A stretch of DNA of 51,766 nt from contig JAKLDD010000003.1 of the NCBI GenBank assembly GCA_022703705.1, forward strand, positions 1 through 51,766, read 5' to 3'. Both the position numbers and the translations under genes were made by a program. This stretch comes from Nanobdellota archaeon (GTDB lineage: Archaea; Nanobdellota; Nanobdellia; Pacearchaeales; GW2011-AR1). The stretch's first letter is position 1. Every line of letters starts with the position of its first letter. Shown piece by piece: positions 2,561 through 47,706 of this stretch. The notes below the pieces were generated by a model. The model saw only the letters and a program-made list of their open reading frames with translations. It was not told where the DNA came from and ran no database searches.

Positions 2561-3805
2561 TTACCACGAATATTTTTTTATTGCGAGTTTATACAATGAA
2601 CTAATCATCACCAAAGGATAAATCATTAGGTACAAGGTCAAAAAGAAGATGAGATTAAAAAGATTTATATTCTTGAGATTAAGTTCTTTCATAGTCATCA
2701 AAGCAAACAAAGTATAAAAACACCCCAATAAAAATAAACTTATCCCAAAGAAATTTAAAATAGTTGGATTAAAACTAAGAGAAATTAATCTGGTAACTGC
2801 TTCATTTGCAACAATAGAATAATGAGTTGAAAAATAAGTTAATAATAAACTTCTAGTGATTAAATATGTAAATAAAATAATTCCTATAACCCCAATAAAT
2901 AAAGACATGCTAAAAAAGGGTATAACAAACATTCCAAGCATATTTTTTCTGAGAGCCCATTTTTTATATTTTAAAATTGTTTGAGTCCCTCCAATATTCC
3001 ACCTAACTCTTTGTTTCCACCATCTCTTAAATGTTTTTGGGGTAACAGTATAAATCTTTGCATCTAAAGACATTCTGGCTTTATATCCATGTGACATCAT
3101 TCTCCAAACAATTTCAATATCCTGAGTTAGATTTTTTTTATCAAACAATCCAATTTCAAGCAAGACTTTTTTTCTATACAATGCAAATGGACCGGGAGTA
3201 ACATACACAGCATCAACGTAATCCAAAAGTTTTCTTGCAAAACAAATAACAACATATTCAAGATATTGAAGTTTTTGAGCAAAACTATGTGCCTCTTTTG
3301 CTAAAACAGCTCCAGTTACTCCCCCAATTTCCTTATCTTTTTGCAAAAATCCAATCATTTTAAGCAAGGCATCTTTTTCAGGGTAAGAATCTGCATCTGC
3401 AACTGCAATATAATCAAATTTTGCTGCTTTAATTCCAATATTTGTAGGTTCTGCTGCTCCTCCGGAATTTTTTTTATTTACAATTAATCTAACGTTCTCA
3501 TATTTTTCAGCATAAGTTTTCACAATTTCAACAGAATTATCTTTAGAGCAATCATCAACAATAATAATTTCAAGCATATCTTTTGGATAATTTAAATTTA
3601 AAAGATTATCTATTGCTTTTCCAATATTTTCCCCCTCATTATAACAAGGCATAACAATACTCACAGGTTCTGGTTTGCCTTCATGATAAAAAAACATTTC
3701 TTTTCTGTGCGGGAAATAAACTATAATCATCAAAACAAGCATATACAATCCTATAAAAGTATAAAAAAAGAAGATAAAATCAACAAAATTCATTTCATTC
3801 TCCAA
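2561..3805 (-). CDS. Family 2 glycosyltransferase, processive (cellulose/chitin/NodC-like) membrane enzyme
   Basis: VSIVMPCYNEGENI, IIVDDCSKDNS, ADADSYP and the QxxRW motif (QRVRWNIGG), flanked by N- and C-terminal TM helices. Confidence 0.8.
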   Translation of the reverse strand: MENEMNFVDFIFFFYTFIGLYMLVLMIIVYFPHRKEMFFYHEGKPEPVSIVMPCYNEGENIGKAIDNLLNLNYPKDMLEIIIVDDCSKDNSVEIVKTYAEKYENVRLIVNKKNSGGAAEPTNIGIKAAKFDYIAVADADSYPEKDALLKMIGFLQKDKEIGGVTGAVLAKEAHSFAQKLQYLEYVVICFARKLLDYVDAVYVTPGPFALYRKKVLLEIGLFDKKNLTQDIEIVWRMMSHGYKARMSLDAKIYTVTPKTFKRWWKQRVRWNIGGTQTILKYKKWALRKNMLGMFVIPFFSMSLFIGVIGIILFTYLITRSLLLTYFSTHYSIVANEAVTRLISLSFNPTILNFFGISLFLLGCFYTLFALMTMKELNLKNINLFNLIFFLTLYLMIYPLVMISSLYKLAIKKYSW

Positions 3806-8206: not shown

Positions 8207-9733
8207 TTAAAATTTAAATCTAAGCAAAGCGCCAATTCCAGATAAATTGAAAAACTGCCTGCCCTCTTCTGTATCCGTTGAGACCATCTCAACTTTAGCT
8301 CCAGTATCATCTGCAATCTTTTTAAGTTCTTTTATTATATTTCTATCACAATCTTTTGATAGAAGCAAAGTATCCACTGCCCCGTATTCAAGTGCTTTCC
8401 TTACTGGGGATTCCTTATAAACTACAAAATCTGGTTTCTCTCCCAATGTTTCAAAAAACTTTTCCATTAATTTTTTTTCATAAACAATTTCCTGATTTGC
8501 TAGAATATCCTGCGATTTTTCAACTAACTCTTTTAAACCAGATTCATCACTCCCCCCAATATCAATTTTCCCAAGAACTTTTTTTTGCAAAAGAGTTGGC
8601 AAATATTCTCCATCTAAAAATTCATCTTTTGTAGGAATTGGGCCTCCAATTAAAATTCCCTTTAATTTTTTATTTTCATAAAAAAGATTTTTCATCTCAT
8701 CAGCTATTCTTTTATAAAATTCTTTGGTTAATCCTTCTGTTATCCTGTGAAACCTTTGAGAAGAATTATGAACAACAACGTCATTAGCAAAAAACTCACC
8801 ACATTGAACTTCAATATCTATTAAATTAAATTTACCCTTTTTTATCTTAATATCTTTAATAGCGATTTTTTCTCCAAAATTTTTCAATAAATAATCTCCT
8901 GTTTTTAATTCCTCTGCAGGAATTTTATCCACCTTTATAGTGCGAGTAATTTTATTCTTTGACCAGTTATTATTACGATCATAAATAAAAAAAAGATGAT
9001 CAGAAGAACATTCAATAGTGCTATTGTCTTCTAAAATAATTATATAAAGCAAATTTTTTTCAACTTCCCACCTTTTTAATACTTTATTATAAAAATCATG
9101 TTCTTTATCCATATGATAGGAAGAAATATCATCTCCTACAGCAACCTCATTTATAAAAATTTTGCCTTTATCTTGAACAACTACAGTAGTATCTGGACTT
9201 AAACACTGTCCACCTGCTCTTACCTTACTAGGAACTCCTGAAGTCATTTTTTGCAAAACTTCTATTCTTTTACCTTCCAAAATTCCTATTGCAGCTTCTT
9301 TTCTATCCATTACAAGCAATGCATAAATCTCTGATACTTCAAGCATCTCTTTTAATGCATCAAGAACAAATTCCTTATCACATCGATATAATCGTGATTT
9401 TAAAGGCATTGGAGGTTCAATACCCCAAATCTGTAAATCATCCTGCCCTTCTATTTTTGAAATATTTCCACAAAATATAGCCATCCCATTTTCAGGATTT
9501 CTCTTCAAATCTTTAATATATCTGACAATTTTATCCAAAGCATCCACTACATTTTTCCTTGTCGAACTGGATTTAATATTTTTAGCAGTGGATTTTTCAG
9601 CTTCAATTTGTTTTTGCACTGAAACAGCATCATAATCTGCAGGAATATAAACAGTAATAAGTTCTGTATGTCTTCCCTTGTGCTTGCTTAATTCTTCCAG
9701 CAAAATCTCTAATTCATATTTTGAAATTGCCAT
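8207..9733 (-). CDS. prf1: Peptide chain release factor aRF1, interrupted by a mini-intein
   Basis: NIKS motif (TAKNIKSSS), YRCDKEF and GGQ (VRAGGQ). The extein resumes with SSQRFHRITE after a 147-aa insertion. The C-terminal domain is typical of aRF1. Confidence 0.9.
   Translation of the reverse strand: MAISKYELEILLEELSKHKGRHTELITVYIPADYDAVSVQKQIEAEKSTAKNIKSSSTRKNVVDALDKIVRYIKDLKRNPENGMAIFCGNISKIEGQDDLQIWGIEPPMPLKSRLYRCDKEFVLDALKEMLEVSEIYALLVMDRKEAAIGILEGKRIEVLQKMTSGVPSKVRAGGQCLSPDTTVVVQDKGKIFINEVAVGDDISSYHMDKEHDFYNKVLKRWEVEKNLLYIIILEDNSTIECSSDHLFFIYDRNNNWSKNKITRTIKVDKIPAEELKTGDYLLKNFGEKIAIKDIKIKKGKFNLIDIEVQCGEFFANDVVVHNSSQRFHRITEGLTKEFYKRIADEMKNLFYENKKLKGILIGGPIPTKDEFLDGEYLPTLLQKKVLGKIDIGGSDESGLKELVEKSQDILANQEIVYEKKLMEKFFETLGEKPDFVVYKESPVRKALEYGAVDTLLLSKDCDRNIIKELKKIADDTGAKVEMVSTDTEEGRQFFNLSGIGALLRFKF
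8765..9205 (-). mobile_element. Class 1 mini-intein (147 aa, no homing endonuclease domain) inserted directly after GGQ of aRF1
   Basis: Codon TGT at 9205-9203 gives Cys1 (CLSPDTTVVV, block A). ECSSDHLFF matches block B (TxxH-like). The insertion ends FANDVVVHN (blocks F/G) with Asn at 8767-8765, and the +1 extein residue is Ser. Confidence 0.85.
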
Positions 9734-18885: not shown

Positions 18886-18977
18886 TGAGGCTGCACAGAT
18901 TTGAACTGTGGACCCCTGCCTTACTGATTTTTTGAAACTATCAGAGCAGTGCTCTAACCAGACTGAGCTACAGCCTC
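18886..18977 (-). tRNA. tRNA-Ile (anticodon GAU) with 17-nt canonical intron
   Basis: Hand-folded cloverleaf. Acceptor GAGGCTG/CAGCCTC plus discriminator A. D arm GCTC-AGTCTGGTTA-GAGC. Anticodon stem CTGCT/GGCAG with loop CT-GAT-A...A. T arm CACAG-TTCAAAT-CTGTG. CCA is not encoded. Confidence 0.85.
18922..18938 (-). other. tRNA-Ile intron (position 37/38, bulge-helix-bulge compatible)
   Basis: The intron is GTTTCAAAAAATCAGTA. Its ATCAG pairs with the anticodon-loop CTGAT, leaving 3-nt bulges at both junctions. Confidence 0.7.
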
Positions 18978-19043
18978 ATATGATTTTGTAGGCAGGATGG
19001 TTTGTTCATAGAACTTTAACCAGACTGAGCTACAGCCTCATAT
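18978..19043 (-). repeat. Leader module: direct repeat of the tRNA-Ile 5' 23 nt (19039-19017) plus 39-nt spacer (19016-18978)
   Basis: GAGGCTGTAGCTCAGTCTGGTTA occurs twice, 23/23 identical (27/27 counting the preceding ATAT). The spacer is AAGTTCTATGAACAAACCATCCTGCCTACAAAATCATAT. Confidence 0.9.
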
Positions 19044-19062
19044 AAAAATCAAATTTAAACAA

Positions 19063-19070
19063 TTTATAAA
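19063..19070 (-). promoter_or_regulatory. TATA-box-like element upstream of the tRNA-Ile leader module
   Basis: TTTATAAA is centred about 27 nt upstream of repeat copy 1. No comparable box lies inside the spacer. Confidence 0.5.
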
Positions 19071-24442: not shown

Positions 24443-26518
24443 ATGGAAAACGAGGAAGGATATTCAGAAGAAGATTATTCGTCAAGTATGCTGGAAAATG
24501 CTCCAAAAAAGAAGCCAAAATCAGAAGATTTAATAATTGAAGCTAAAAATTTCTTTAATTTTAATAAAGAAGATTTAGGGGAATCAATACGAAAAAGGAC
24601 AAATGTTGTTTTTCTTGATTTTATGAAACTTACAGAATTTTCAAATAAACTCTCTGATGAAATAATTATCAATCCAGAAGAAACCTTAAGCCTTATAGAA
24701 CAAGGAGTTGAAGAACTAGGTTTAGTAAAAAATGTACGAATTAGATTAAAAAATCTTTCAGATGCGCACCAAATTAAAATAAGAAATATACGTTCAAAAC
24801 ATCTTAATGAACTTATAATCCTAGAAGGAATAATAAGGCAGGCATCAGATGTTCGTCCACAAGTAGTAAATGCAAAATTTGAATGTCCAAGCTGTGGAAC
24901 AGTTATTTCTGTGTTACAAATTGAAAAAAAATTCCGGGAACCAAGCAGATGTTCCTGTGGGAGAAGAGGAGGATTTAGATTAATTTCAAAAGATATGGTT
25001 GATACTCAAAGATTAGTTGTAGAAGAACCTCCAGAATCTCTTTCAGGAGGAGAACAGCCAAAAAGAATTAATGTTTTTGTCAAAGAAGATTTAGTTGAAC
25101 CAAAAATGGAAGATAAAACAACTCCTGGAGCAAGAATAAAAATAATAGGAATATTGAAAGAAGTTCCTGTTCCATTAAGCACAGGAGGATTATCCACCAG
25201 ATTTGAATTAGCTGTTGAAGCAAATAACATAATTCCAATGGAAGAAACATTTGAAGAATTAGATATAACAGATGAAGATGAAAGACAAATTCAGGAACTT
25301 TCTGAAGACCCAAAAATATTTGAAACATTAGCCAAAAGCATAACTCCAAGTGTTTGGGGATATGATGAAATAAAAAAAGCATTAGTTTTGCAATTATTCG
25401 GGGGAGTTCAAAAGCAAATGTCAGATGGTTCAAAATCAAGAGGAGATATACATATTCTTCTTATAGGAGACCCGGGAGTTGCAAAAAGCGTAACTTTAGT
25501 TTTTATGTCAAATATTTCCCCAAAAGGAAGATATGTTGTAGGAAAATCAACATCAGGGGCAGGTTTGACAGCAACTGTTGTGCGTGATGAATATCTAAAA
25601 GGATGGAGTTTAGAAGCAGGAGCAATGGTTCTTGCAAATAAAGGGCTTATATGCATAGATGAATTAGAAAAAATGGACCCTCAAGACAGAAGTGCCATGC
25701 ATGAAGCAATGGAACAGCAAACAGTAACAATCTCCAAAGCAAATGTTCAAGCTACATTAAAAGCTCAAACATCTGTCCTAGCTGCAGCAAATCCAAAATT
25801 TGGAAGATTCGATCCTTTTATGCCAATACCTCAACAAATTGATTTACCCCCAACACTAATAAATAGATTTGATATAATATTTACATTAAGGGATATTCCA
25901 GATAGAAATAAAGATGAAAGAATTGCAACACATGTTTTAAAAGAACATCAGAAAGAAACAAAAGAGGTTTTAATTGATTCTAATTTATTCAGAAAATATG
26001 TCGCATATGCAAAGCAAAAAATAAATCCAAAATTAATCCCAGAATCTGTGGAAGAATTAAAAAAATTTTATATTGAACTGAGGAATAAACCAGTTACATC
26101 TGAAAGTGCAATGCGCCCAATACCAATTTCAGCAAGACAATTACAAGCATTAATTAGAATGTCAGAAGCATCAGCAAGAATGAGGTTAAGTGAAGAAGTT
26201 TCAAAAGATGATGCAAAAAAAGCAATTGAATTAATGACATATTATCTTACCCAAGTAGGTTATGATTATGAGTCAAAGACTTTTGATATTGACAAAATAT
26301 CTGGGAAATTTTCCTCATCACAAAGAAACAAAATACTCATGGTAAAAGAAGCAATAACCGCTCTTGAAAGCAAAATGGGAAAAATGATTCCGTATGAAGA
26401 AATTGAAAAAGAACTTGAAGAAAAGATAAGTAAAGATGAACTTGAAGAGGTAATAAACAGATTAATTAGGGATAATGAGATTTATCGCCCAAAAAAAGGA
26501 TACATTGGAGTTTTTTAA
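24443..26518 (+). CDS. mcm: MCM replicative helicase
   Basis: Zn finger CPSCG...CSCG, Walker A GDPGVAKS, Walker B CIDELEKM and arginine finger NRFDIIF, plus a C-terminal winged helix. No intein. Confidence 0.95.
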   Translation: MENEEGYSEEDYSSSMLENAPKKKPKSEDLIIEAKNFFNFNKEDLGESIRKRTNVVFLDFMKLTEFSNKLSDEIIINPEETLSLIEQGVEELGLVKNVRIRLKNLSDAHQIKIRNIRSKHLNELIILEGIIRQASDVRPQVVNAKFECPSCGTVISVLQIEKKFREPSRCSCGRRGGFRLISKDMVDTQRLVVEEPPESLSGGEQPKRINVFVKEDLVEPKMEDKTTPGARIKIIGILKEVPVPLSTGGLSTRFELAVEANNIIPMEETFEELDITDEDERQIQELSEDPKIFETLAKSITPSVWGYDEIKKALVLQLFGGVQKQMSDGSKSRGDIHILLIGDPGVAKSVTLVFMSNISPKGRYVVGKSTSGAGLTATVVRDEYLKGWSLEAGAMVLANKGLICIDELEKMDPQDRSAMHEAMEQQTVTISKANVQATLKAQTSVLAAANPKFGRFDPFMPIPQQIDLPPTLINRFDIIFTLRDIPDRNKDERIATHVLKEHQKETKEVLIDSNLFRKYVAYAKQKINPKLIPESVEELKKFYIELRNKPVTSESAMRPIPISARQLQALIRMSEASARMRLSEEVSKDDAKKAIELMTYYLTQVGYDYESKTFDIDKISGKFSSSQRNKILMVKEAITALESKMGKMIPYEEIEKELEEKISKDELEEVINRLIRDNEIYRPKKGYIGVF

Positions 26519-29937: not shown

Positions 29938-29946
29938 TTTTAAATA
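29938..29946 (+). promoter_or_regulatory. TATA-box-like element upstream of the tRNA-Asn leader module
   Basis: TTTTAAATA is centred about 31 nt upstream of repeat copy 1 (29973). The spacer contains no comparable box. Confidence 0.5.
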
Positions 29947-29970
29947 AGGTTCTAGCTAACTTTGTATAAG

Positions 29971-30031
29971 ATGCCCTGGTAGCTCAGTTGGTTAAAGTTC
30001 TAAAGAACAAACCATCTTCGCCAAGGTATAT
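29971..30031 (+). repeat. Leader module: direct repeat of the tRNA-Asn 5' 22 nt (29973-29994) plus 37-nt spacer (29995-30031)
   Basis: GCCCTGGTAGCTCAGTTGGTTA occurs at 29973-29994 and again at 30032-30053, 22/22 identical (24/24 with the preceding AT). The spacer is AAGTTCTAAAGAACAAACCATCTTCGCCAAGGTATAT. Confidence 0.9.
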
Positions 30032-30153
30032 GCCCTGGTAGCTCAGTTGGTTAGAGCGCACGGCTGTTAAGCGCGAATAAGTTCGTTCATTCAACAATCT
30101 ATTCGTAAATTGCTGAAACCGTGAAGTCGTAGGTTCAAGTCCTGCCCGGGGCG
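30032..30153 (+). tRNA. tRNA-Asn (anticodon GUU) with ~48-nt intron
   Basis: Hand-folded cloverleaf. Acceptor GCCCTGG/CCGGGGC plus discriminator G. D arm GCTC-AGTTGGTTA-GAGC. Anticodon stem CACGG/CCGTG with loop CT-GTT-A...A. T arm GTAGG-TTCAAGT-CCTGC. CCA is not encoded. Confidence 0.8.
30070..30117 (+). other. tRNA-Asn intron (nominally 37/38; boundaries ambiguous by 1 nt because of flanking A runs)
   Basis: 55 nt lie between the two anticodon-stem strands, i.e. a 7-nt loop plus 48 nt. An internal helix CGAATA (30074-30079) / TATTCG (30100-30105) is visible. I could not draw a textbook bulge-helix-bulge by eye. Confidence 0.55.
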
Positions 30154-30401: not shown

Positions 30402-31520
30402 ATGAAAGATAAAAACAAAAAAGTTCTTTTAGCAATGTCGGGTGGAGTGGACTCAAGTGTTGCTGCATTTCTTCTTAAAAAACAAGGATATGAAGTTATT
30501 GGGGCATTTATGAAAAATTGGAGTGATACCAAAGACCCTTTAACTGGCAGATGCGCTTGGAGGACAGAAAGAAAAATGGCATTAAAAATAGCTTCTCAAT
30601 TAAATATTCCATTAATAACTCTAGATTTTGAAAAGCAATACAGAAAAGAAGTCATTAACAAGATGTTCGAAAAATACAAAAAAGGAATTACACCTAATCC
30701 CGATATAGATTGCAATCAAAAAATAAAATTCCCCCTTCTTTTAAAAGAAGCCCAAAAAAGAAGCATAAATACAATTGCAACAGGGCATTATGCAAGAGTA
30801 AGAAAAAACAAAAATAGTATTTATGAACTTCTAAGAGGAAAAGATGAATCAAAAGATCAATCATATTTCTTGTATAAAATAACACAAAAAGAGCTTTCAC
30901 ATTGCTTATTTCCAATAGGGGAATATACTAAAGAGCAAATACGAAAAATTGCAAAAGAAAAAAATTTTCCAAACTACAATAAAAAAGGAACAGTCGGAAT
31001 ATGTTTTGTAGGGAAAGTGAATCTAAAAAAATTTCTTCAAAAAAAGATAAAATCAAAAAAAGGAAAAATTCTTAACCCCAATGGGCAAATTATTGGAGAA
31101 CATGATGGAATTTATTATTATACTATAGGGCAAAGATTAGGCCCAAGATATGGATTTGAAATAGACAGAGGAAATAAAAATAAACCCTCCAAATGGTATG
31201 TTGCAAAAAAGGATATAAAAACTAACATAATTACTGCAGCTCCTGAAAACCACCCTTTAAATTTTAGGAAAGAAATAATTGTAAAAGATTTGCATTTAAT
31301 ATCAGAAAAAGAGAATATCTTCAAAAATCAATCAACAAAAGTTTTTTCAAGAATAAGGCATGTTGGAGAATTACTTCCTAGCACACTTTATTATAATAAA
31401 AAAACAAAACAGTTTAAAATAACACTTAATGAAGCAATAACAGGAGTAAGTGAAGGACAAGCGGTGGTTATTTATGAAAAAGATAGGGTTCTTGGTGGAG
31501 GAGAAATAAAATTTAATTAA
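30402..31520 (+). CDS. mnmA: tRNA-specific 2-thiouridylase MnmA (bacterial-type)
   Basis: PP-loop VLLAMSGGVDSSVAAFLL, then NPDIDCN, ATGHYAR, DQSYFL and GICF. Confidence 0.85.
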   Translation: MKDKNKKVLLAMSGGVDSSVAAFLLKKQGYEVIGAFMKNWSDTKDPLTGRCAWRTERKMALKIASQLNIPLITLDFEKQYRKEVINKMFEKYKKGITPNPDIDCNQKIKFPLLLKEAQKRSINTIATGHYARVRKNKNSIYELLRGKDESKDQSYFLYKITQKELSHCLFPIGEYTKEQIRKIAKEKNFPNYNKKGTVGICFVGKVNLKKFLQKKIKSKKGKILNPNGQIIGEHDGIYYYTIGQRLGPRYGFEIDRGNKNKPSKWYVAKKDIKTNIITAAPENHPLNFRKEIIVKDLHLISEKENIFKNQSTKVFSRIRHVGELLPSTLYYNKKTKQFKITLNEAITGVSEGQAVVIYEKDRVLGGGEIKFN

Positions 31521-35291: not shown

Positions 35292-35699
35292 ATGCAAAGT
35301 GAAATAATTTATCTTGTAAACACCAAAATTTTGACAATAAAAAATAAAGGGAGATGTTATCAAGGAATTATTGAAGGAGTAGAAAAAACCTTTACTAATT
35401 TAGAGCCATTAGGAAGACCTTTTTCAATAATAACAAAATCAAATAAAAATATTCCCTTAGAAGAAACTTTGGAATTCAAAGAGCTTTACAATCCATTTAC
35501 ACCTTTAGAACACTATTTAAGAGAAGCGGAAGTTGAATTTACGCTCTCCAGAAGAGAAAAAAATTTACCTCAATACTTAGGAATAGAATATGGAAATCCT
35601 GCAATCATGGAAGTTATTAATAACTTTGGAAGAGATGGATCCAACATAAAAAGAAGCATTTTTCCTTGCAAGTTTTACCTAATAAAAGATAAATTTTAA
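35292..35699 (+). CDS. Hypothetical protein
   Basis: 135-aa ORF. No motif recognised. Confidence 0.4.
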   Translation: MQSEIIYLVNTKILTIKNKGRCYQGIIEGVEKTFTNLEPLGRPFSIITKSNKNIPLEETLEFKELYNPFTPLEHYLREAEVEFTLSRREKNLPQYLGIEYGNPAIMEVINNFGRDGSNIKRSIFPCKFYLIKDKF

Positions 35700-36262
35700 A
35701 TTGCTTCCTCTAATTTTTCAATCTTACTCCATCCTCTTTTGAGCTTTGCATTAACTTGTTTTACAATTAACTTCAAAAAATCACCATTAACCAGAAGTTT
35801 TCCATTTTTGAAAATTGGAAATTCCAATCTTTCTGTGCTATTTAATTCTAAGACAATATTTCTACCCAAGGCATTTATTCCAGAACGCTTCCAACCAATT
35901 GACTTTGCTTTTTCCAAAAACCAAGAAGCCCCCTCTAAATTTTTAGATGCCACATGCAATATAGGGGGTTCTAATTTAAATTTTATTAATTCTTTCCTTC
36001 TTGAAAGAACTTTTAGAGAACTTTTTAATTCAGAAAAAGAAATCAATTCATGCCAAACTTTCAAAAATAAATCCGGAGATTTTTTATCTTTATCCAGCAT
36101 TATAACAATTCTCCCAGAACAAGAGGAAGTCGTATAAAAGTTTTCTTTGGAATTTATTTTATTGCATAAGGAGATTATTCTTTTATCCCATCCCCCAATA
36201 GAAGACTTATCTAATTTGGAAAGAATTGCTGACTTGCGTTGAAAAAAGAAATCTCTTTGCAT
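35696..36262 (-). CDS. taw3: tRNA wyosine-derivative methyltransferase Taw3/TYW3
   Basis: LDKSSIGGWDKRIISLCNKINSKENFYTTSSCSGRIV contains the TYW3 SSCSGR signature. Confidence 0.75.
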   Translation of the reverse strand: MQRDFFFQRKSAILSKLDKSSIGGWDKRIISLCNKINSKENFYTTSSCSGRIVIMLDKDKKSPDLFLKVWHELISFSELKSSLKVLSRRKELIKFKLEPPILHVASKNLEGASWFLEKAKSIGWKRSGINALGRNIVLELNSTERLEFPIFKNGKLLVNGDFLKLIVKQVNAKLKRGWSKIEKLEEAI

Positions 36263-41277: not shown

Positions 41278-42579
41278 TTAAGGTGTAAATCTTGCCATTG
41301 TTCTAGGAAATGCAATTGCATCTTTTATTGTATCTAAACCGCATATCCAAGAAATTATTCTTTCAACACCCATTCCAAAGCCCCCGTGAGGAACACTTCC
41401 ATATTTTCTTGTATCTAAATAAAAAGAATATTGTTCTGGCTTTTCTCCCATTTCAATTAATCTCTTTTTAATCTTATTAGGATCTGCTTCTCTTTCACTT
41501 CCCCCAATTAATTCTCCATAACCTTCTGGTCCAATAAAATCACATCCATTAACAACTTTAGGATTTCCTTCTGTCTCTTTCATATAAAACGCTTTAACTT
41601 CTTTTGGATAATTTGTAACAATTATGGGAGTATCATGCAACTTACTTAATTCATCCTCTTCAATTGTTCTCAAATCTTTGCCCCAAGGAATTTTTATCTT
41701 TGCTTTTTCTTTAAGAATTTTTAAAGCATCATCATAAGTCATTCTTGGAAAAGGTTTTTTTACAGTAGGTTCTAATTTTTTAATATCTCTCTCTAGAATT
41801 TCAAGTTCTGGTTTATTTTCATCCAAAACTTTTTTTACAATATGTTTTATTAATCCTTCACCATAATCTTGAATATCCTTAAAAGTCGCCCAGGCAACTT
41901 CCATTTCATTCATCCATAATTCAGTTAAATGCCTTGAAGTTTTACTTTCTTCTGCCCTAAATGCAGGTGAAATAGTGTAAATTTTTTCTAAAGCAAATAT
42001 TGCTGGCTCAGCATACAATTGCCAAGTCTGAGCTAAAAATACTCCTTTCTTTCCAAAATAATCTACATTAAATAAGCTACTTCCCCCCTCACACTGAACT
42101 GCTTGAAATATTGGACTCTGATATTCATAAAATCCATTTTTTCTAAAATATTCATGTATTGCATTAAATACAGTGCTTCTTATCTTAAGTATTGCGGTCA
42201 TCTTTCTGCTTCTTAACCATAAATGCCTTCTATCTCCAAGCAATTCTTCATTTAAGTCTTTATTAATAGGGTAATCTTCTGCAATTTGTATAATATTTAT
42301 TTTCTTAACCTGAATTTCAAAACCTGTTGGGGCTCTTTTGTCTTCTTTTACTTCTCCAATTATTTCGAGAGAGCTTTCAATTTTTATTTTATCTATCTCA
42401 TCCCACTGCTTTTCAAAATTTTTCTTTTCAAGAACACATTGAATAATATTAGAACTATCTCTCAATACAATAAATTTCATAGCATTGCTTCCTCTTTCTC
42501 TATAAACCCATCCGCGAACTGCTACTTCTCCCTTCTTCTTTTCAATTGCTTCTTGTATTGAAATAAATTTATGAACCAT
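41278..42579 (-). CDS. asnS: Asparaginyl-tRNA synthetase
   Basis: Class IIb enzyme with an N-terminal OB domain. AFRAEESKTSRHLTELWMNEMEVAW is AsnRS-type motif 2, and GGFGMGVERI is motif 3. Confidence 0.75.
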   Translation of the reverse strand: MVHKFISIQEAIEKKKGEVAVRGWVYRERGSNAMKFIVLRDSSNIIQCVLEKKNFEKQWDEIDKIKIESSLEIIGEVKEDKRAPTGFEIQVKKINIIQIAEDYPINKDLNEELLGDRRHLWLRSRKMTAILKIRSTVFNAIHEYFRKNGFYEYQSPIFQAVQCEGGSSLFNVDYFGKKGVFLAQTWQLYAEPAIFALEKIYTISPAFRAEESKTSRHLTELWMNEMEVAWATFKDIQDYGEGLIKHIVKKVLDENKPELEILERDIKKLEPTVKKPFPRMTYDDALKILKEKAKIKIPWGKDLRTIEEDELSKLHDTPIIVTNYPKEVKAFYMKETEGNPKVVNGCDFIGPEGYGELIGGSEREADPNKIKKRLIEMGEKPEQYSFYLDTRKYGSVPHGGFGMGVERIISWICGLDTIKDAIAFPRTMARFTP

Positions 42580-42659: not shown

Positions 42660-43793
42660 ATGGTATTTGAAATAAAACATAAAGATAAAAAAACATCTGC
42701 AAGGATAGGAATTCTCCAGACAAAAAAAGGAAAAGTTGAAACTCCTTTTTTTATGCCTGTTGCAACTCGTGGAAGTGTAAAAACTTTAGACTCTCATGAA
42801 CTTCAAAAAATAAAAGTTCCAGCTGTTATTTCTAATGCATTAATTCTTTCTCTAAGAGAAGGGGAAACAATAGTAAACAAATTCAAGGGGATTGGAAAAT
42901 TCATGAATTACAAAGGAATAAATTTCACAGATTCTGGAGGATTTCAAATGTATTCTCCCAGCATTTATTTAAAATCTACAAAAGAAGGGATTTTTTTTAG
43001 AAATCCTTTAAATGGAGAAAAAATATTCATGACTCCTGAAAAAAATATGGAATTACAATTAAAAATATCAAGCGAAGTTGCAATGTGTCTTGATTCTATG
43101 CCAATGTATCATAATACAACAAAAAATCAAATTGAAGAAGCTGTAAAAAAAACATCACTTTGGGCAAAAAGATGTAAGCTTCATCACGATGAATTACAAA
43201 AAGATACAAAAACAGACAAACGTCAACTTTTATTTGGAATAATTCAAGGGGGAAAATATGAAGACTTAAGAGGACTCTCAACAAAACAACTTTTAGAAAT
43301 AGATTTTGATGGATATTCTATTGGAGGTTTTGGTTTAGGGGAAACAATTGAAGAAGAATTTAACATTGTCAAAAAAGTAAAACAAATGCTTCCAGAGAAC
43401 AAACCAGTATATCTTATGGGAATTGGAAATCCAGTTGAAATATTAAAAGGAATTTCTATGGGGGTGGATATTTTTGATTCAAGAATGCCAACACAAAATG
43501 CAAGGCGGGGTTCTTTATTCACATCAGAAGGAAAATTGCGTATTCTTAGAGAAGCTTGCAAATTCGACAAAAATCCAATTGACAAAAACTGTAGTTGCTT
43601 TGTATGTAAAAACTACAGCCGTGCTTTCATCCGTTATCAGCTCATCCACGATGAATTTACAGGGAAAAAACTTGCTACATATCATAACATTTACTATCTC
43701 ACAAACCTAATAAATATAGCAAAGGAAAAAATCAAAGAGGGGAAATTCAAAGATTTCATGAAAGAAGTTGAGGGAAAGTATAAAGAAAATTAA
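42660..43793 (+). CDS. tgt: tRNA-guanine transglycosylase family enzyme, short form without PUA/C-terminal domains
   Basis: TPFFMPVAT.GSVK, TDSGGFQ, LFGIIQGGKYEDLR, FDGYSIGG, YLMGIGNP, the zinc site CSCFVCKNYSRAF...H, and HNIYY. Confidence 0.8.
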   Translation: MVFEIKHKDKKTSARIGILQTKKGKVETPFFMPVATRGSVKTLDSHELQKIKVPAVISNALILSLREGETIVNKFKGIGKFMNYKGINFTDSGGFQMYSPSIYLKSTKEGIFFRNPLNGEKIFMTPEKNMELQLKISSEVAMCLDSMPMYHNTTKNQIEEAVKKTSLWAKRCKLHHDELQKDTKTDKRQLLFGIIQGGKYEDLRGLSTKQLLEIDFDGYSIGGFGLGETIEEEFNIVKKVKQMLPENKPVYLMGIGNPVEILKGISMGVDIFDSRMPTQNARRGSLFTSEGKLRILREACKFDKNPIDKNCSCFVCKNYSRAFIRYQLIHDEFTGKKLATYHNIYYLTNLINIAKEKIKEGKFKDFMKEVEGKYKEN

Positions 43794-44092: not shown

Positions 44093-45364
44093 TCACGGAG
44101 TTAATCTTGTTCTATCTCTTGGGAACATTGTCGCTTCTTTAACATTATCCAACCCACATATAATCTGAGTTATTCTCTCGAGGCCGATACTCCATCCAGA
44201 ATGTGGTGGAGCACCATATCTAAAGCTATCTACATATGCTTTAAAATTATCTGGATTCAATCCCTTAGCTTTCAATCTTGCAATAAGTAAATCTGGAATA
44301 TGTATTCTCTGACCTCCTGAAGAAATTTCAATACCCCCATAAAGAGCATCAAACCCTTCACTTAATTTAGCATCTTTCTTTTCATCTTTAGTCATAATAT
44401 AAAATGGTTTTATTGAAGTGGGCCATGAATGTGTAAAAACTATCTCTCCAGGATACATTTCACAAAGTTTTCTTTCTTCTTCTGGTGTAAAGTCTTCTCC
44501 AATTTTACCCCCAACTTTCTTAAGTGCTTCTTCATAACTTAGGTATACCCCTTTAGGAACTTTCAAATGTTTAATTTCTAAAATTTCAAGTTGATGTTTA
44601 CATTTCTCTAAAACCTGTTTAACAATAAATTGCACAACTTCTTCAAGCTCTTTCATAATAGACATTTGATTTGTAAATGCACACTCAATGTCCATTTGTC
44701 TAATTTCATTGATATGCCTAGTAGTATTATGCTTCTCTGCTCTCCAAACAGGAGTTATAGTAAAAGTGTTACCTAAAGAACATGCAAGCATCTGTTTATA
44801 CAACTGAGGAGATTGTGCTAAATACGCTTTTTGCTCAAAGTACTGCACAGAAAATAATTCAGTTCCCCCTTCTGAAGCTGCACTAATTATACAAGGAGGT
44901 TGTATCTCAATAAAACCTTTATTGTAAAAATGCTCTCTAAAAGAATTCGCAATAACTGTTTGAATTTCAAATATTGCTTGAATCTTAGGTTTTCTTATAT
45001 CCAAAAATCTATAATCTAATCTATTCTGAAATTCAGTTGTAGTTGTTTTTTCATTAACATGAATGGGTAATTTCTCTGCCTTACTTATAACCTCGATACT
45101 TTCAACATCAACCTCAACATCTTCTCTAACAAATTCTGCTTTAACTTTTGCTGATTTTGTTTTTCCCTTTATCTCCACTGCACTTTCAAGGCTTAAATCA
45201 GATAATTTTGATAATTCTTTACCCTGAACAACACACTGAACAATTCCTGTTTTATCCCTAAGCAAAACAAAACCCAACTTAGCAAGAACTCTTATCTCAT
45301 ATACCCAACCTTTCAACAAAACTTTTTTATCTGTTTTTAAATCTTCAACTAAAGTTCTTTCCAT
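44093..45364 (-). CDS. aspS: Aspartyl-tRNA synthetase (archaeal type)
   Basis: N-terminal OB domain, VWRAEKHNTTRHINEIRQMDIECAF (archaeal AspRS motif 2) and GWSIGLERI (motif 3). Confidence 0.8.
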   Translation of the reverse strand: MERTLVEDLKTDKKVLLKGWVYEIRVLAKLGFVLLRDKTGIVQCVVQGKELSKLSDLSLESAVEIKGKTKSAKVKAEFVREDVEVDVESIEVISKAEKLPIHVNEKTTTTEFQNRLDYRFLDIRKPKIQAIFEIQTVIANSFREHFYNKGFIEIQPPCIISAASEGGTELFSVQYFEQKAYLAQSPQLYKQMLACSLGNTFTITPVWRAEKHNTTRHINEIRQMDIECAFTNQMSIMKELEEVVQFIVKQVLEKCKHQLEILEIKHLKVPKGVYLSYEEALKKVGGKIGEDFTPEEERKLCEMYPGEIVFTHSWPTSIKPFYIMTKDEKKDAKLSEGFDALYGGIEISSGGQRIHIPDLLIARLKAKGLNPDNFKAYVDSFRYGAPPHSGWSIGLERITQIICGLDNVKEATMFPRDRTRLTP

Positions 45365-46216: not shown

Positions 46217-47668
46217 TTACTTCTTTTTCACCAATTTATTTATTATCTCCATTGCCTCTTTACCATTAATCTTTCCCTTAAACTTAGCCATAACTAATCC
46301 CATATATGCATTAGCATTTAATCCAGGCTTTTCTTTTATTATCTTCAAAACTTCCCCTTCAATCTCAGAATTATCTGCTTTCTCTATCTTTATTGCTTCT
46401 TCAAAATTCTTTCCATTTACAATATTAATTAAAATATCTTTAACATCTCCTTCACCTATCTTCTTTTTATTTAATAATCTCAAAATATCCCCATAATAAT
46501 CAATTATCTTTTCTTCAATCTTTTCAAATGTTTTATTTTCTTTTGAAGCTATTTCTTTTGGAAATAAAACAATCATCTTAACAATAAAATTAAGATTAGA
46601 ATAAATGTTTGCAAGAGATTTCAATTCTTCAATTTTATCTTCGTTTAAAATTAGCTTAATCATTTCTTCACTTAATCCCTTTTCTTTAAGTTCTCCTGCA
46701 ATTTCACTTCTCAATTTAGGCAAGTCTTTCTTTATTTCATTAATAAATTCTCTGGATATTTTAAGTAAAGGCAAATCTGTTTCAGGATACATTCTATCTG
46801 AACCGGGCATAGGCCTTAAAAATTCAGAAGAACCATCTGGAAGAGCATTTCTAACTTCTGCTTGAGTGGGAGTCTTTTCATCATATAATTCTTTTTGTCT
46901 TAAAACTTCATTTTCAATTGTCTTAACAAAAGTTCTCATATCCTGAACACCTTTCATCTCAACCCTATTTCCATTCAAGATAGATATGTTTACATCTTGT
47001 CTAATTGTTCCAATTCCCCTCTTAACTTTACAACTTCTTAGAACATCTCCAATATGTAATGCAACTTCTTTAGCTTGCTCAGCAGATTTAATATCTGGAG
47101 AGGTTGCAATTTCAACCAAAGGTATTCCCAACCTATCTAAATTCCAATAAACTTTATCTCCTTCTTTTTTAACTTCCCGTGCAGAATCCTCTTCCAAACA
47201 AATTGTATCAATACCAACTCTTCCAAAAGCAGTTTCAACATATCCATCTCTGGCAATTAAAACAGTTCTCTGGAATCCTGAAGTATTACTTCCATTTATA
47301 ACAGTCTTTCTCATAATTTGTGTAATAGGAATAATCTTACAATTAAGAAGTAAAGCAATTTGAAGTGCTATTTTCAAAGCTTCTTCATTAATTTCATGAG
47401 GGGGTTCTTCATCCAATTCAATTAAGCAAGTGCTATTTTTATAACCCTGATAAACAAAAGTTTTTTTTAGAGAAGCCTGATATTCTGCAGCCCTATCAAC
47501 TTTACCTGATTCTCCAGCAACAGCATGAAGTTTTCTCTCAACTAAAAAATCCGGTTCATCATTTCTTAAAACAGAAGGGCAATTACAAAACAATTTATGA
47601 GTATCTAACTGCTGATGTATTTCCAAACCAGATTTAAACTTTAGCTTACTGTAATCAATCTTTTCCAT
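46217..47668 (-). CDS. gatE: Glutamyl-tRNA(Gln) amidotransferase subunit E (GatE), short form
   Basis: GLEIHQQLDTHKLFCNCPS, LHAVAGESGKVDRAA, CLEEDSAR and IRQDVNISI. The first ATG is 47668 (MEKIDY); the track start is TTG. Confidence 0.8.
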   Translation of the reverse strand: MEKIDYSKLKFKSGLEIHQQLDTHKLFCNCPSVLRNDEPDFLVERKLHAVAGESGKVDRAAEYQASLKKTFVYQGYKNSTCLIELDEEPPHEINEEALKIALQIALLLNCKIIPITQIMRKTVINGSNTSGFQRTVLIARDGYVETAFGRVGIDTICLEEDSAREVKKEGDKVYWNLDRLGIPLVEIATSPDIKSAEQAKEVALHIGDVLRSCKVKRGIGTIRQDVNISILNGNRVEMKGVQDMRTFVKTIENEVLRQKELYDEKTPTQAEVRNALPDGSSEFLRPMPGSDRMYPETDLPLLKISREFINEIKKDLPKLRSEIAGELKEKGLSEEMIKLILNEDKIEELKSLANIYSNLNFIVKMIVLFPKEIASKENKTFEKIEEKIIDYYGDILRLLNKKKIGEGDVKDILINIVNGKNFEEAIKIEKADNSEIEGEVLKIIKEKPGLNANAYMGLVMAKFKGKINGKEAMEIINKLVKKK

Positions 47669-47706
47669 AAAAAGATTAAACAAAGAGGGTTTATTAAAAT
47701 TTTGAA

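Follow-up and report, generated by a model that had tools for sequence, protein, structure and literature searches.

A hairpin insert linked to tRNA genes of DPANN archaea that looks like a previously undescribed miniature insertion element

tRNA genes are classic landing sites of mobile elements, and those of archaea are known for break-up by introns, splits and permutations. The tRNA-Ile(GAU) gene in a 51,766-nt stretch of DNA from a Nanobdellota archaeon (contig JAKLDD010000003.1; the whole stretch is called the window hereafter) raises the question of how a complete tRNA gene came to stand behind a direct repeat of its own first 23 nt and a structured spacer, an architecture that is not described in the literature located by full-text search. 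Three readings had been offered in a first-pass annotation: a long 5' leader removed at the second copy, a D-loop intron, and the footprint of a tRNA-targeting insertion. The locus belongs to a type in which a minute insert duplicates a tRNA terminus and adds an inverted copy of it, as a recurrent outcome at tRNA genes, and in which an almost leaderless tRNA gene becomes a gene with a structured leader of 60-150 nt.

Re-reading of the sequence placed all elements of the tRNA-Ile locus at the minus-strand positions first assigned to them (Table 1), while the gap between the TATA octamer and ATAT, given as about 23 nt, was corrected to 19 nt, 23 nt being the distance from the octamer to the tRNA +1. 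Plain tRNA-Ile genes of two relatives, L010 and L012, have the same promoter at the same distance. The apical motif region of the spacer contains an AAA/A internal loop, and a tail homologous to that of the window is present in L045. The anticodon-loop intron of the functional gene is absent from L010 and different in L012. In a repeat search the direct repeat at tRNA-Ile measured 30 nt at 97% identity (ATAT + 23 + AAG/GAG) with a spacing of 62. A second tRNA gene of the window had been said to show the same arrangement, and this instance was found at tRNA-Asn(GUU) and mapped; its repeat measures 27 nt at 96% identity with a spacing of 59. These two are the only non-A-rich short-range direct repeats of at least 18 nt in the 51.8-kb window. 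The window has exactly two occurrences of their shared spacer motif, AAGTTCTA(N1-2)GAACAAACCATC, against none in 100 shuffles; the Ile and Asn copies have only the 22-nt apical motif in common, the remainder being tRNA-specific. ARAGORN with default settings found neither window tRNA gene.

Table 1. Features of the two tRNA-linked units in the window
Feature	Position	Strand	Remark
TATA box TTTATAAA of tRNA-Ile transcription unit	19063..19070	-	3' end 23 nt upstream of copy 1 +1
ATAT before copy 1	19043-19040	-	
Copy 1 (X), tRNA-Ile nt 1-21/23, GAGGCTGTAGCTCAGTCTGGTTA	19039-19017	-	19017..19043 with ATAT
39-nt spacer, tRNA-Ile locus	19016-18978	-	
Conserved apical motif AAGTTCTATGAACAAACCATC	18996..19016	-	covariance model 56.2 bits
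P3 hairpin GTTC/GAAC	19014-19011 / 19007-19004	-	
P2, AACCA with copy 1 D-loop TGGTT	19002-18998 / 19022-19018	-	
X' AACCATCCTGCCTAC, apparently a decayed inverted copy of copy 1	18988..19002	-	pairs with copy 1 nt 6-21
A-rich single-stranded tail AAAATCATAT	18978..18987	-	joins hairpin to mature tRNA 5' end
Copy 2, first 23 nt of functional tRNA-Ile	18977-18955	-	
Functional tRNA-Ile(GAU) gene	18886..18977	-	Rfam RF00005, 57.4 bits
Canonical 17-nt anticodon-loop intron, tRNA-Ile	18922..18938	-	strict bulge-helix-bulge
TATA-like box TTTTAAATAA of tRNA-Asn unit	29938..29947	+	
Copy 1, AT + tRNA-Asn nt 1-21, GCCCTGGTAGCTCAGTTGGTTA	29971..29994	+	
tRNA-Asn spacer	29995..30031	+	covariance model 58.7 bits
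Apical motif AAGTTCTAAAGAACAAACCATC, tRNA-Asn	29995-30016	+	followed by X' and tail TTCGCCAAGGTATAT
Functional tRNA-Asn(GUU) with anticodon-loop intron of ~48 nt	30032..30153	+	Rfam 55.7 bits

The spacer motif was found at 28 further tRNA genes of five species (Lys, Asn, Ile-GAU, Ile-UAU and Thr) in DPANN genomes and metagenomes. The order of parts is constant at all 28: X (nt 1-21), an apical hairpin AAGTTC-loop-GAACAAACC, X', an A/C-rich tail, and X with the complete tRNA. The genome scan gave 7 tRNA-linked DPANN loci, its 1 further archaeal and 21 bacterial matches being chance matches without a tRNA; the metagenome scan gave 21 tRNA-linked loci and 3 chance matches. A covariance model made 44 strong matches among the collected loci, every one directly upstream of a tRNA. 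Part of the near-invariance of the apical motif comes from ascertainment, as the motif was fixed in the search patterns. Spacers measure 37-63 nt throughout about 30 loci, with the same internal organisation and never kilobases in length, and the units occur singly or as tandem doubles. At each of the five tRNA species the arms of the unit match the host tRNA itself. Furthermore, mirror-image counterparts were found at tRNA 3' ends, sister families differ in apical hairpin and in insertion point (after nt 8, 14 or 15-17), and L011 and L048-Glu combine the same architecture with unrelated apical sequences. The interpretation first given to the locus was upheld in part; it lacked X' as an inverted copy, the wide spread and the 3' mirror-image versions.

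Comparison of relatives revealed filled and empty sites at both loci. At the syntenic tRNA-Ile locus the insert is present in the window and in L045, has a variant form in L011 and L068, and is missing from L010, L012/13, L070/71 and L072. At the syntenic tRNA-Asn locus the window, L036 and L077 (two units) are filled, and L075, L074 and L076 are empty. L075, the closest relative at this locus with a neighbouring protein 92% identical, has the same promoter and no insert. As in att duplication, the insert lies between direct repeats of a partial tRNA, and the tRNA gene has been restored in full. We consider it somewhat probable that the extra 62 nt (Ile) and 59 nt (Asn) are a miniature non-coding insertion that targets DPANN tRNA genes and has a forward-inverted-forward structure. 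The footprint of a tRNA-targeting insertion, as proposed earlier, gains from the empty and filled sites at both loci, but what is found is a complete recurring unit and no scar. Mobility of the unit is inferred only from its presence and absence and from its recurrence at different tRNAs.

In 16 of 20 loci a TATA-like A/T octamer stands at -38..-26 before copy 1, and in 0 of 20 before the functional copy, in agreement with the earlier claim that the only convincing TATA box precedes copy 1, and the leader would accordingly be placed between the promoter or transcription start and the mature 5' end. A promoter internal to the spacer was considered and rejected: no A/T octamer stands at -38..-26, and the distance from the motif to +1 varies from 17 to 44 nt, and hence the motif is no promoter. 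Several lineages have a decayed copy 1: L045 has a G3A acceptor mismatch and a 19-nt nested hairpin insertion, L036/L055 have A9T, and L047 has an altered D-loop; copy 2 is canonical in each of these and never decays. Since the promoter lies only before copy 1, copy 1 decays, and no bulge-helix-bulge (BHB) motif excises the unit (see below), the working 5' end is that of copy 2, and copy 1, outer and non-functional, forms the 5' arm of the leader hairpin. Copy 1 and the spacer presumably constitute a structured leader removed by RNase P, and the first of the three readings, a leader removed at copy 2, agrees with the promoter placement, the rod hairpin and the decay of copy 1. Neither RNase P RNA nor its protein subunits were found in the 52-kb window (Rfam, Pfam), and because of this we only infer the removal of the leader. 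From the units one would predict a dependence on RNase P in these archaea, in contrast to Nanoarchaeum equitans. RNase P RNP proteins have been reported in all archaeal genomes examined, DPANN included (PMC6380272). In most lineages copy 1 is 100% identical to copy 2, lineage-specific D-loop variants included, though the linkers have diverged, a pattern that speaks for gene conversion, for rapid turnover, or for copy 1 being under selection, in which last case a function at the RNA level would be favoured.

Copy 1 and the spacer fold into a rod hairpin in 21 of 21 distinct units, with minimum free energies of -13 to -24 kcal/mol. At tRNA-Ile the energy is -15.2 kcal/mol (RNAfold; z = -3.0), equalled by 4 of 200 linker shuffles, and for 17 of the 21 units the observed energy was reached in at most 6 of 200. 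The GTTC-TAT-GAAC hairpin at the start of the spacer is P3, and two pairings noticed at first sight hold: that of AACCA with the D-loop TGGTT is backed by covariation (T-A, C-G, G-C), and the rest of the spacer complements the acceptor and D-stem 5' strand. Compensatory changes occur in 2 of 9 core pairs, with 98.8% of cells paired, a covariation signal that comes from three sequences; P3 of L068 is GTGC/GCAC, not GTTC/GAAC. The internal loops AAA/A and YY/TY are conserved. Where X and X' oppose each other, 32 G.U stand against 30 A.C, transitions in either direction account for the mismatches, and folding of the antisense strand is at least as good as that of the sense strand, a pattern that points to X' as a decayed, once-perfect inverted copy of X. 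The unit has the form of a folded single-strand site, an imperfect hairpin that mimics the target in the order target, loop, inverted copy, rest, target. Against Rfam 15, at gathering and relaxed E-value thresholds, only RF00005 passed, matches in the leader region having E values of 1-4.5, far below gathering. By eye, the motif was rejected as a hammerhead or K-turn (CUGA is not universal and there are no tandem G.A pairs), as a C/D-box or H/ACA element (no C box, no pseudouridylation pocket), and as a T-arm (a loop lacking a closing pair of the G53-C61 type). The upstream unit was likewise rejected as a degenerate mini-tRNA of acceptor and D arm, because X' also complements the D-loop and nt 8-9/14-15, which are never paired in a tRNA.

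If the unit is a miniature insertion, transcription would begin at the first nt of copy 1 or a few nt before it, driven by the original promoter, and the nascent copy 1 would be locked into the rod hairpin with X', leaving copy 2 without a competitor for the tRNA body. Downstream, the cloverleaf could fold normally and RNase P could cut at -1/+1 of copy 2, freeing a hairpin leader of ~60 nt; the tRNA gene would therefore survive the insertion. The direct repeats would permit precise loss or tandem expansion through recombination or slippage. As for the origin, the order X-loop-X'-rest-X would be the trace expected of folded-hairpin single-strand integration, as for CTX phage and integron attC, and would equally be expected from target-templated fold-back synthesis; under both routes the apical hairpin would be the part recognised by a trans-acting enzyme. 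The tRNA-specific arms are not predicted by a simple cut-and-paste or copy-and-paste element; they call for synthesis templated by the target or for later adaptation. Among the ~60 ORFs of the window Pfam identified housekeeping genes only, and no integrase, transposase or reverse transcriptase. Only tentatively might one go further and propose a new class of non-autonomous mobile elements of ~60-75 nt, integrated as a hairpin or by templated fold-back with a trans-acting enzyme and having 3' mirror relatives. Fold-back synthesis would then be bounded by the 5' end of the transcript and the displaced tRNA terminus regenerated, while the enzyme would recognise the conserved UAAC-type apical hairpin and the 3' mirror-image relatives would share the mechanism.

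Selection by the host offers another explanation, rather unlikely in our judgement, in which a structured 5' leader would contain a functional RNA module, namely the rod hairpin of copy 1 and X' together with its conserved apical loop. Such a module might be a signal for protein binding or processing, an element for pre-tRNA folding or stability, a switch in which X' alternates between the copies, or a stable sRNA of ~60 nt released by RNase P. Predicted transcription from the tRNA promoter, the compensatory changes in P2 and P3, the conserved internal loops, an apical motif near-invariant over five tRNA species and many lineages, and the fidelity with which copy 1 follows lineage-specific D-loop variants of copy 2 despite diverging linkers would all suit this explanation. 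However, the conservation of the motif was partly imposed by the search patterns, the wobble pairs have no sense-strand bias, and the same architecture occurs with unrelated apical sequences (L011, L048-Glu) and in 3' mirror versions. A host-selected leader is also hard to reconcile with patchiness in close relatives, with empty sites in 92%-identical genomes, with a copy number that varies between 1 and 2 units, and with the decay of copy 1 and nested insertion in some lineages.

A spontaneous local rearrangement, by template switching or fold-back at highly transcribed tRNA genes and with no mobile element involved, would account for X-X'-X as the signature of an inverted triplication, for the resemblance of X' to a once-perfect inverted copy, for breakpoints that differ by locus (nt 8, 14, 15-17, 21), and for a left boundary at the predicted transcription start (0-6 nt before +1). 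It is nevertheless improbable, as the same foreign apical sequence of 19-22 nt, which the empty sites lack, marks the first junction in genes for Lys, Asn, Ile and Thr tRNAs across many genomes, whereas a local process would loop native sequence.

Archaeal integrative elements, those at tRNA 5' termini included, are classically recognised by partial tRNA copies that flank the inserted DNA (PMC3293823; PMC9897764), so that the unit could also be the scar of a virus or plasmid that integrated in the 5' part of the tRNA, duplicated its att site and was then nearly all deleted. This history seems quite improbable: spacers of 37-63 nt with one internal organisation recur in about 30 loci, the window holds no integrase remnants, and the inverted copy X' and its hairpin are left unexplained. 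A viral origin was rejected, since the 89-nt unit had no match in phage and plasmid collections (BLAST) and a motif scan of viral contigs gave 3 matches, none with an adjacent tRNA or terminal repeat.

Removal of exactly one repeat unit would also yield a correct tRNA, as in the D-loop intron reading with copy 1 as exon 1 and the spacer plus copy 2 as a 62-nt intron excised by the endonuclease and circularised. P2-AAA-P3 is superficially like a helix-bulge-helix, and the epsilon-2 type endonucleases of DPANN archaea, as may be counted in its favour, are said to accept relaxed motifs. The reading did not hold up, however, and is highly improbable. The best BHB that would cut out 62 nt (Ile) or 59 nt (Asn) has a 4-bp central helix with flanks of only 0-2 bp, whereas the genuine anticodon intron of tRNA-Ile, the control in the same scan, was recovered with helices of 5 bp (outer), 4 bp (central) and 3 bp (inner) and an excised length of 17. 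The rod combines a P2 of 5 bp with a 2x2 loop and one extra A, not two 3-nt bulges 4 bp apart; double units would require nested splicing. The tRNA constraint is absent from the putative upstream exon, copy 1 being altered in L045 (G3A, 19-nt insertion), L036 (T9) and L047 (D-loop), and copy 2 is intact.

An assembly artefact in the form of a collapsed or chimeric repeat can practically be dismissed, for although short exact repeats can mislead assemblers and L040 has an N-gap within a double unit, the 200-nt arrangement is identical in four independently assembled contigs from different pipelines (two JGI, one ENA, one Logan), which excludes the mis-assembly that had been raised as a concern, and the same architecture stands on about 30 unrelated contigs. 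The organism is present in anaerobic-digester samples, for example JGI 3300009771 and 3300025902.

If mobile, the units would rank among the smallest known site-specific elements and would point to a new recombination or templated-insertion activity in DPANN archaea. In practice the units mislead tRNA finders, and their short exact repeats can break or collapse assemblies.

Among known systems, archaeal att duplication by SSV-type and pNOB8-type integrases likewise leaves a partial tRNA terminus and a regenerated tRNA as flanking direct repeats, targets the 5' or 3' end of the tRNA, and permits serial accretion at one tRNA; the 5' fragment of tRNA-Thr in Caldiarchaeum subterraneum is an example (PMC3293823). 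The inserts here differ in being gene-free, of 37-63 nt at about 30 loci, with an inverted copy and a conserved apical hairpin, and in making the tRNA depend on read-through from the original promoter; they are not gene-carrying inserts with an integrase, and the window has no integrase or transposase domain. MITEs and REP/REPIN repeats are also small, non-coding, hairpin-forming, multi-copy and presumably mobilised in trans. Unlike them, the unit has no terminal inverted repeats (its ends are AAGTTC... and ...CATAT), its duplication is 21-27 nt, not the 2-10 nt of a MITE, its site is strictly the termini of tRNA genes, and its arms are copied from the target. A CRISPR array was rejected, as all spacers open with the same 19-22-nt motif followed by the repeat complement, and there are at most 3 repeats, the last one within the tRNA. 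Casposon, CRISPR-adaptation, IS200/IS605, hAT-footprint and bridge-RNA analogies each fail on at least one structural feature, be it terminal inverted repeats, duplication length, unrelated spacers, or the lack of a duplication.

Non-canonical tRNA introns of archaea, for which transposition has been proposed in Thermoproteales, and split tRNAs share with the unit an insert in the tRNA coding region that complements the adjacent exon, and related inserts at several tRNAs; here, by contrast, there is no BHB and the displaced part is replaced by a second copy, giving a leader and not an intron. Inverted triplications of the ODIRA type have the same forward-inverted-forward order with a hairpin-capable junction sequence, but on a scale of kilobases where the unit measures tens of nt, and the unit has a conserved foreign loop common to unrelated loci. 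To our knowledge, there is no description from archaea or from tRNA 5' ends of anything like the CTX-phage attP(+) hairpin, used with XerCD, or integron attC, and no recombinase for such integration was found in the window. The likeness to these sites is architectural only, the unit being far smaller than any known element of the type, and it consists in an imperfect hairpin that has conserved unpaired bases and a stem mimicking the duplex target, in common tandem arrays, and in a predicted order after integration, target, loop, inverted copy, rest and target, that is the order observed here.

Two tRNA genes of the window carry, ahead of their 5' ends, a short unit that is best explained as a miniature, gene-less, tRNA-targeted insertion. 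The first-pass annotation had described a repeat-spacer-repeat before tRNA-Ile(GAU) on the minus strand, which is confirmed, and its second tRNA with an equal arrangement is tRNA-Asn(GUU). In a repeat search of the window, the direct repeat measured 30 nt at tRNA-Ile (97% identity, spacing 62) and 27 nt at tRNA-Asn (96% identity, spacing 59); no further short-range direct repeats of at least 18 nt were found except two A-rich low-complexity ones. The spacer motif AAGTTCTA(N1-2)GAACAAACCATC occurs at two places in the window, both these tRNA loci, and in 0/100 shuffles. An assembly artefact at the tRNA-Ile locus, a concern raised earlier, is ruled out by four independently assembled contigs (JGI twice, ENA and Logan) that are base-for-base identical there. 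Rfam detects both tRNA genes. ARAGORN at default settings found neither, nor any tRNA in the whole window, and with introns allowed it called tRNA-Ile(GAU) 'Thr ggt', or 'Ala ggc' in relatives, because the intron was misplaced.

Positions of the two units and their tRNA genes in the window
Feature	Position	Strand	Remarks
TATA-like box TTTATAAA	19070-19063	minus	
ATAT		minus	19 nt downstream of TTTATAAA, directly before copy 1
Copy 1, GAGGCTGTAGCTCAGTCTGGTTA	19039-19017	minus	
39-nt spacer	19016-18978	minus	
Copy 2, GAGGCTGTAGCTCAGTCTGGTTA	18977-18955	minus	23 nt identical to copy 1; runs into tRNA
tRNA-Ile(GAU)	18886-18977	minus	17-nt anticodon-loop intron; Rfam 57.4 bits
tRNA-Asn(GUU) unit overall	29938-30153	plus	architecture as at tRNA-Ile
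tRNA-Asn copy 1	29973-29994	plus	
tRNA-Asn apical motif	29995-30016	plus	
tRNA-Asn X' and tail	30017-30031	plus	
tRNA-Asn gene	30032-30153	plus	~48-nt anticodon-loop intron

The arrangement recurs at other tRNA genes, where the first-pass annotation had proposed to look for it. Searched across 185,579 species-representative genomes, the pattern AAGTTCTAN{1,2}GAACAAACCA returned 29 loci (handles of the form L021 denote loci compared with the window): 21 bacterial and one archaeal chance matches, none adjoining a tRNA, and seven DPANN tRNA genes sharing the exact architecture, namely tRNA-Lys in L021, L030, L038, L040, L042 and L043 and tRNA-Asn in L036. The pattern GGTTAAAGTTCN{3,5}GAACAAACC yielded 24 loci across JGI metagenomes, 21 of them with the architecture, adding tRNA-Thr(GGU), tRNA-Ile(UAU) and L045, a close relative of the window tRNA-Ile. 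A covariance model of the core gave 44 strong matches among the collected loci, all directly upstream of tRNAs and two of them in the window. Tandem double units (copy-spacer-copy-spacer-tRNA) stand in L021, L040/46/52, L044/48, L051/59/67, L064, L065 and L077. The hosts of the GGTTA-family motif all decode ANN codons (Lys, Asn, Ile twice and Thr) and have a common D arm, GTAGCTCAGYYTGGTTAGAGC.

Every aligned unit consists of five parts in order: the tRNA 5'-end segment X, an apical motif, an inverted copy X', a tail, and X again. Side-by-side comparison showed that X spans tRNA nt 1-21 and terminates at the D-loop GGTTA, that the apical motif is AAGTTC-(3-4 nt loop)-GAACAAACC, that the tail is A/C-rich and 4-15 nt long, and that the second X is the start of the real tRNA in every unit compared. 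With RNAfold, X and X' form a single rod hairpin in 21/21 distinct units (-13 to -24 kcal/mol); for 17 of these units, no more than 6 of 200 linker-only shuffles fold to the energy observed. The X' complement is tailored to each tRNA: CTGAG...GGGC (Lys), CCAAGG (Asn), CTG.CCTAC (Ile), CTGACTATA (Ile-UAU) and CTTAGCTA (Thr). In the core, D-loop NGGTT pairs with AACCN', the N-N' pair among distinct sequences being U-A in 15, C-G in one, G-C in one and mismatched in two, and the apical stem P3 is GTTC/GAAC with the sole exception of L068 (GTGC/GCAC). Core cells are paired at 98.8% with compensatory changes at 2 of 9 pairs, most columns being invariant in part because the search patterns fixed them, so that covariation support for the core is thin but consistent. 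Wobble oppositions lack strand bias (G.U 32 vs A.C 30), and folding of the antisense strand is no weaker than that of the sense strand. This makes X' look like a formerly perfect inverted copy of X decaying by transitions, and its sequence does not appear shaped by RNA-level selection. A host RNA function of the hairpin is still a serious rival to the insertion, favoured by the conserved apical motif and by the identity of copy 1 to copy 2 in most lineages despite linker divergence.

Which copy serves the tRNA is suggested by promoter placement and by decay. In 16/20 loci, copy 1 has a TATA-like A/T octamer upstream of it, at -38..-26; the functional copy has one at that distance in 0/20. Copy 1 of L045 (~8580-8660, minus strand) carries G3A, which breaks an acceptor pair, and a nested 19-nt perfect hairpin, CAGAAGG-TTAGA-CCTTCTG, in the D arm between C13 and A14; L036/L055 carry A9T, L047 an altered D-loop, and copy 2 is canonical at all loci compared. 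The working tRNA 5' end is therefore, judged from sequence, copy 2, and copy 1 with the spacer is predicted to be transcribed as a leader, as the first-pass annotation had proposed from the TATA box upstream of copy 1; its reading of a long structured leader ending at copy 2 fits octamers, decay and rod hairpins alike. In L045, the D-loop base of copy 1 (G) agrees with copy 2, as does its spacer partner (C). Plain tRNA genes of the lineage are almost leaderless because the TATA box lies ~23-27 nt upstream of +1, and the insert is expected to give the gene a leader of 60-150 nt. Its removal would presumably have to fall to RNase P; RNase P RNP proteins are reported from all archaeal genomes examined, with no HARP in DPANN (PMC6380272). 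The apical motif as promoter is ruled out, as its distance to +1 varies from 17 to 44 nt.

A D-loop intron, with copy 1 as exon 1 and 62 nt excised, had also been considered and is rejected on missing bulge-helix-bulge geometry and on copy 1 decay. The geometry sought in both precursors was two 3-nt bulges, a central helix of 4 bp and an outer helix; in the Ile precursor it is matched strictly by the anticodon intron alone (5/4/3 bp, excising 17 nt). Candidates required to excise 62 nt (Ile) or 59 nt (Asn) have, at best, flanking helices of 0-2 bp. The rod hairpin has a 5-bp P2 (the D-loop/AACCN' pairing), a 2x2 pyrimidine loop and an AAA/A loop, and lacks two bulges 4 bp apart. The strict scan also found no motif at the tRNA-Asn anticodon intron, whose bulge-helix-bulge is therefore relaxed.

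Gain and loss of the insert can be read among relatives. Syntenic tRNA-Ile loci, lying between dUTPase and a zinc-ribbon gene, were collected via L15e homologues and are plain in L010 (L15e 86% identical), L012/13 (92%), L070/71 and L072. The L045 insert is homologous to that of the window; L011 (96%) has a 14-nt copy, two apical hairpins, the inverted copy GCTACTCC and a tail before the tRNA; and L068 (77%) has an 8-nt copy 0, a 23-nt copy 1 with variant apical motif, the tRNA and a 3' duplication. In plain L010 and L012/13, and also in L011 and L045, the promoter and the interval between it and the first copy match those of the window. The tRNA-Asn locus, reached via the neighbouring KH-protein gene, is empty in L075 (protein 92% identical, same promoter), L074 and L076; one insert occupies it in L036 and two units do so in L077. 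At each of the two window loci, then, the insert is polymorphic for presence or absence. Empty tRNA-Asn genes have the D-loop GGCTA/GGCTTA in L074 and L076, but GGTTA in L075.

A generic scan of all 44 tRNAs on the collected archaeal loci revealed one further 5' family, confirmed the L068 3' duplication and uncovered 3' counterparts. At tRNA-Glu(CUC) of L048 (minus strand, ~2696-3000), X comprises the first 15-17 nt of the tRNA; behind it come the apical hairpin AAAAGTT-TAAC-AACTTTT, an inverted copy in decay, another hairpin and the full tRNA, which itself carries a ~127-nt intron. The 3' elements mirror the 5' units in their order, tRNA(Y)-tail-Y'-hairpin-Y: Y' is complementary to the acceptor 3' strand or the T-loop, and the last part repeats a portion of the tRNA 3' end. 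Type A (L021, L030, L038 and L058, downstream of tRNA-Lys) has the tail first, then GATTTGAAC, to which the T-loop is reverse-complementary, a hairpin and an incomplete 3' copy with ...CAAATCCCTTCGGGGCCA at its end; L042, L064, L052 and L021 carry Type B, and L011 and L068 additional 3' duplications. Both types can stand in series (L021). The GTT(C)-TAAC-(G)AAC motif recurs in several sister and 3' families. The 5' duplication begins 0-6 nt upstream of +1, about the expected transcription start, and some 3' duplications run through the T-rich terminator; together these hint that transcript ends or an R-loop may define the boundaries.

Housekeeping genes mark the window (G+C ~29%) as chromosomal DNA of a DPANN archaeon; they encode L15e, MCM, ATP-dependent DNA ligase, TBP, eIF-1A, eIF-2 beta, aminoacyl-tRNA synthetases and similar proteins. 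Its named L15e homologues are labelled Nanoarchaeota or archaeon, and motif-bearing contigs from the genome scan carry the record labels Woesearchaeota and Diapherotrites. No integrase, transposase, reverse transcriptase, RNase P subunit or splicing endonuclease was found within the window. In L074, a 77-86% relative, a transposase-like ORF (weak DDE_Tnp_IS240/rve_3) at 1193-2080 precedes the empty tRNA-Asn locus by ~1 kb. The eRF1 gene (8207-9733, minus) is split by an intein (Hint/Intein_splicing domains between eRF1 domains 1 and 2). MCM (24443-26518, plus) has 691 aa and no intein, whereas it reaches 1032 aa in the 86% relative L010 (15614-18712) and 1485 aa with a LAGLIDADG intein in L068 (11507-end), so that mobile inteins also come and go in this lineage. 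tRNA-modification genes, TYW3 among them, lie at 30402-31520, 35696-36262 and 42660-43793; an MnmA-like 2-thiouridylase gene is immediately 3' of tRNA-Asn, MnmA of L074 is broken into 95-aa and 288-aa ORFs, and the window TGT is short (377 aa), lacking the C-terminal domains that archaeosine TGT has. Two class-II Asp/Asn-type synthetase paralogues accompany GatE-like and GatD genes of the tRNA-dependent amidation pathway (41278-42579, 44093-45364, 46217-47683 and 48812-50080, all minus).

In a tRNA-targeted insertion, the displaced tRNA terminus would be regenerated and the leftover copy 1 neutralised inside the hairpin. A remnant of a conventional integrated element is rejected, as all ~30 loci have 37-63-nt inserts of equal organisation and no genes; nothing similar to the insert was found in phage, plasmid and viral collections. 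A MITE is ruled out by missing terminal inverted repeats and a 21-27 nt duplication, and a CRISPR-like array by the motif shared among spacers. Kilobase-scale elements leave partial tRNA copies (PMC3293823, PMC9897764), and the literature also describes split, permuted and intron-bearing tRNAs and a relaxed substrate range of DPANN endonucleases; no description of the unit architecture was found in the literature searched. Insertion into tRNA genes with terminal duplication is known, the unit belongs to that kind as a variant, and the chance of a new mechanism behind it is substantial. Target-primed fold-back synthesis would yield X-loop-X'-rest-X, and so would single-strand integration of a folded hairpin, as at CTX phage attP and integron attC, leaving the order seen here.
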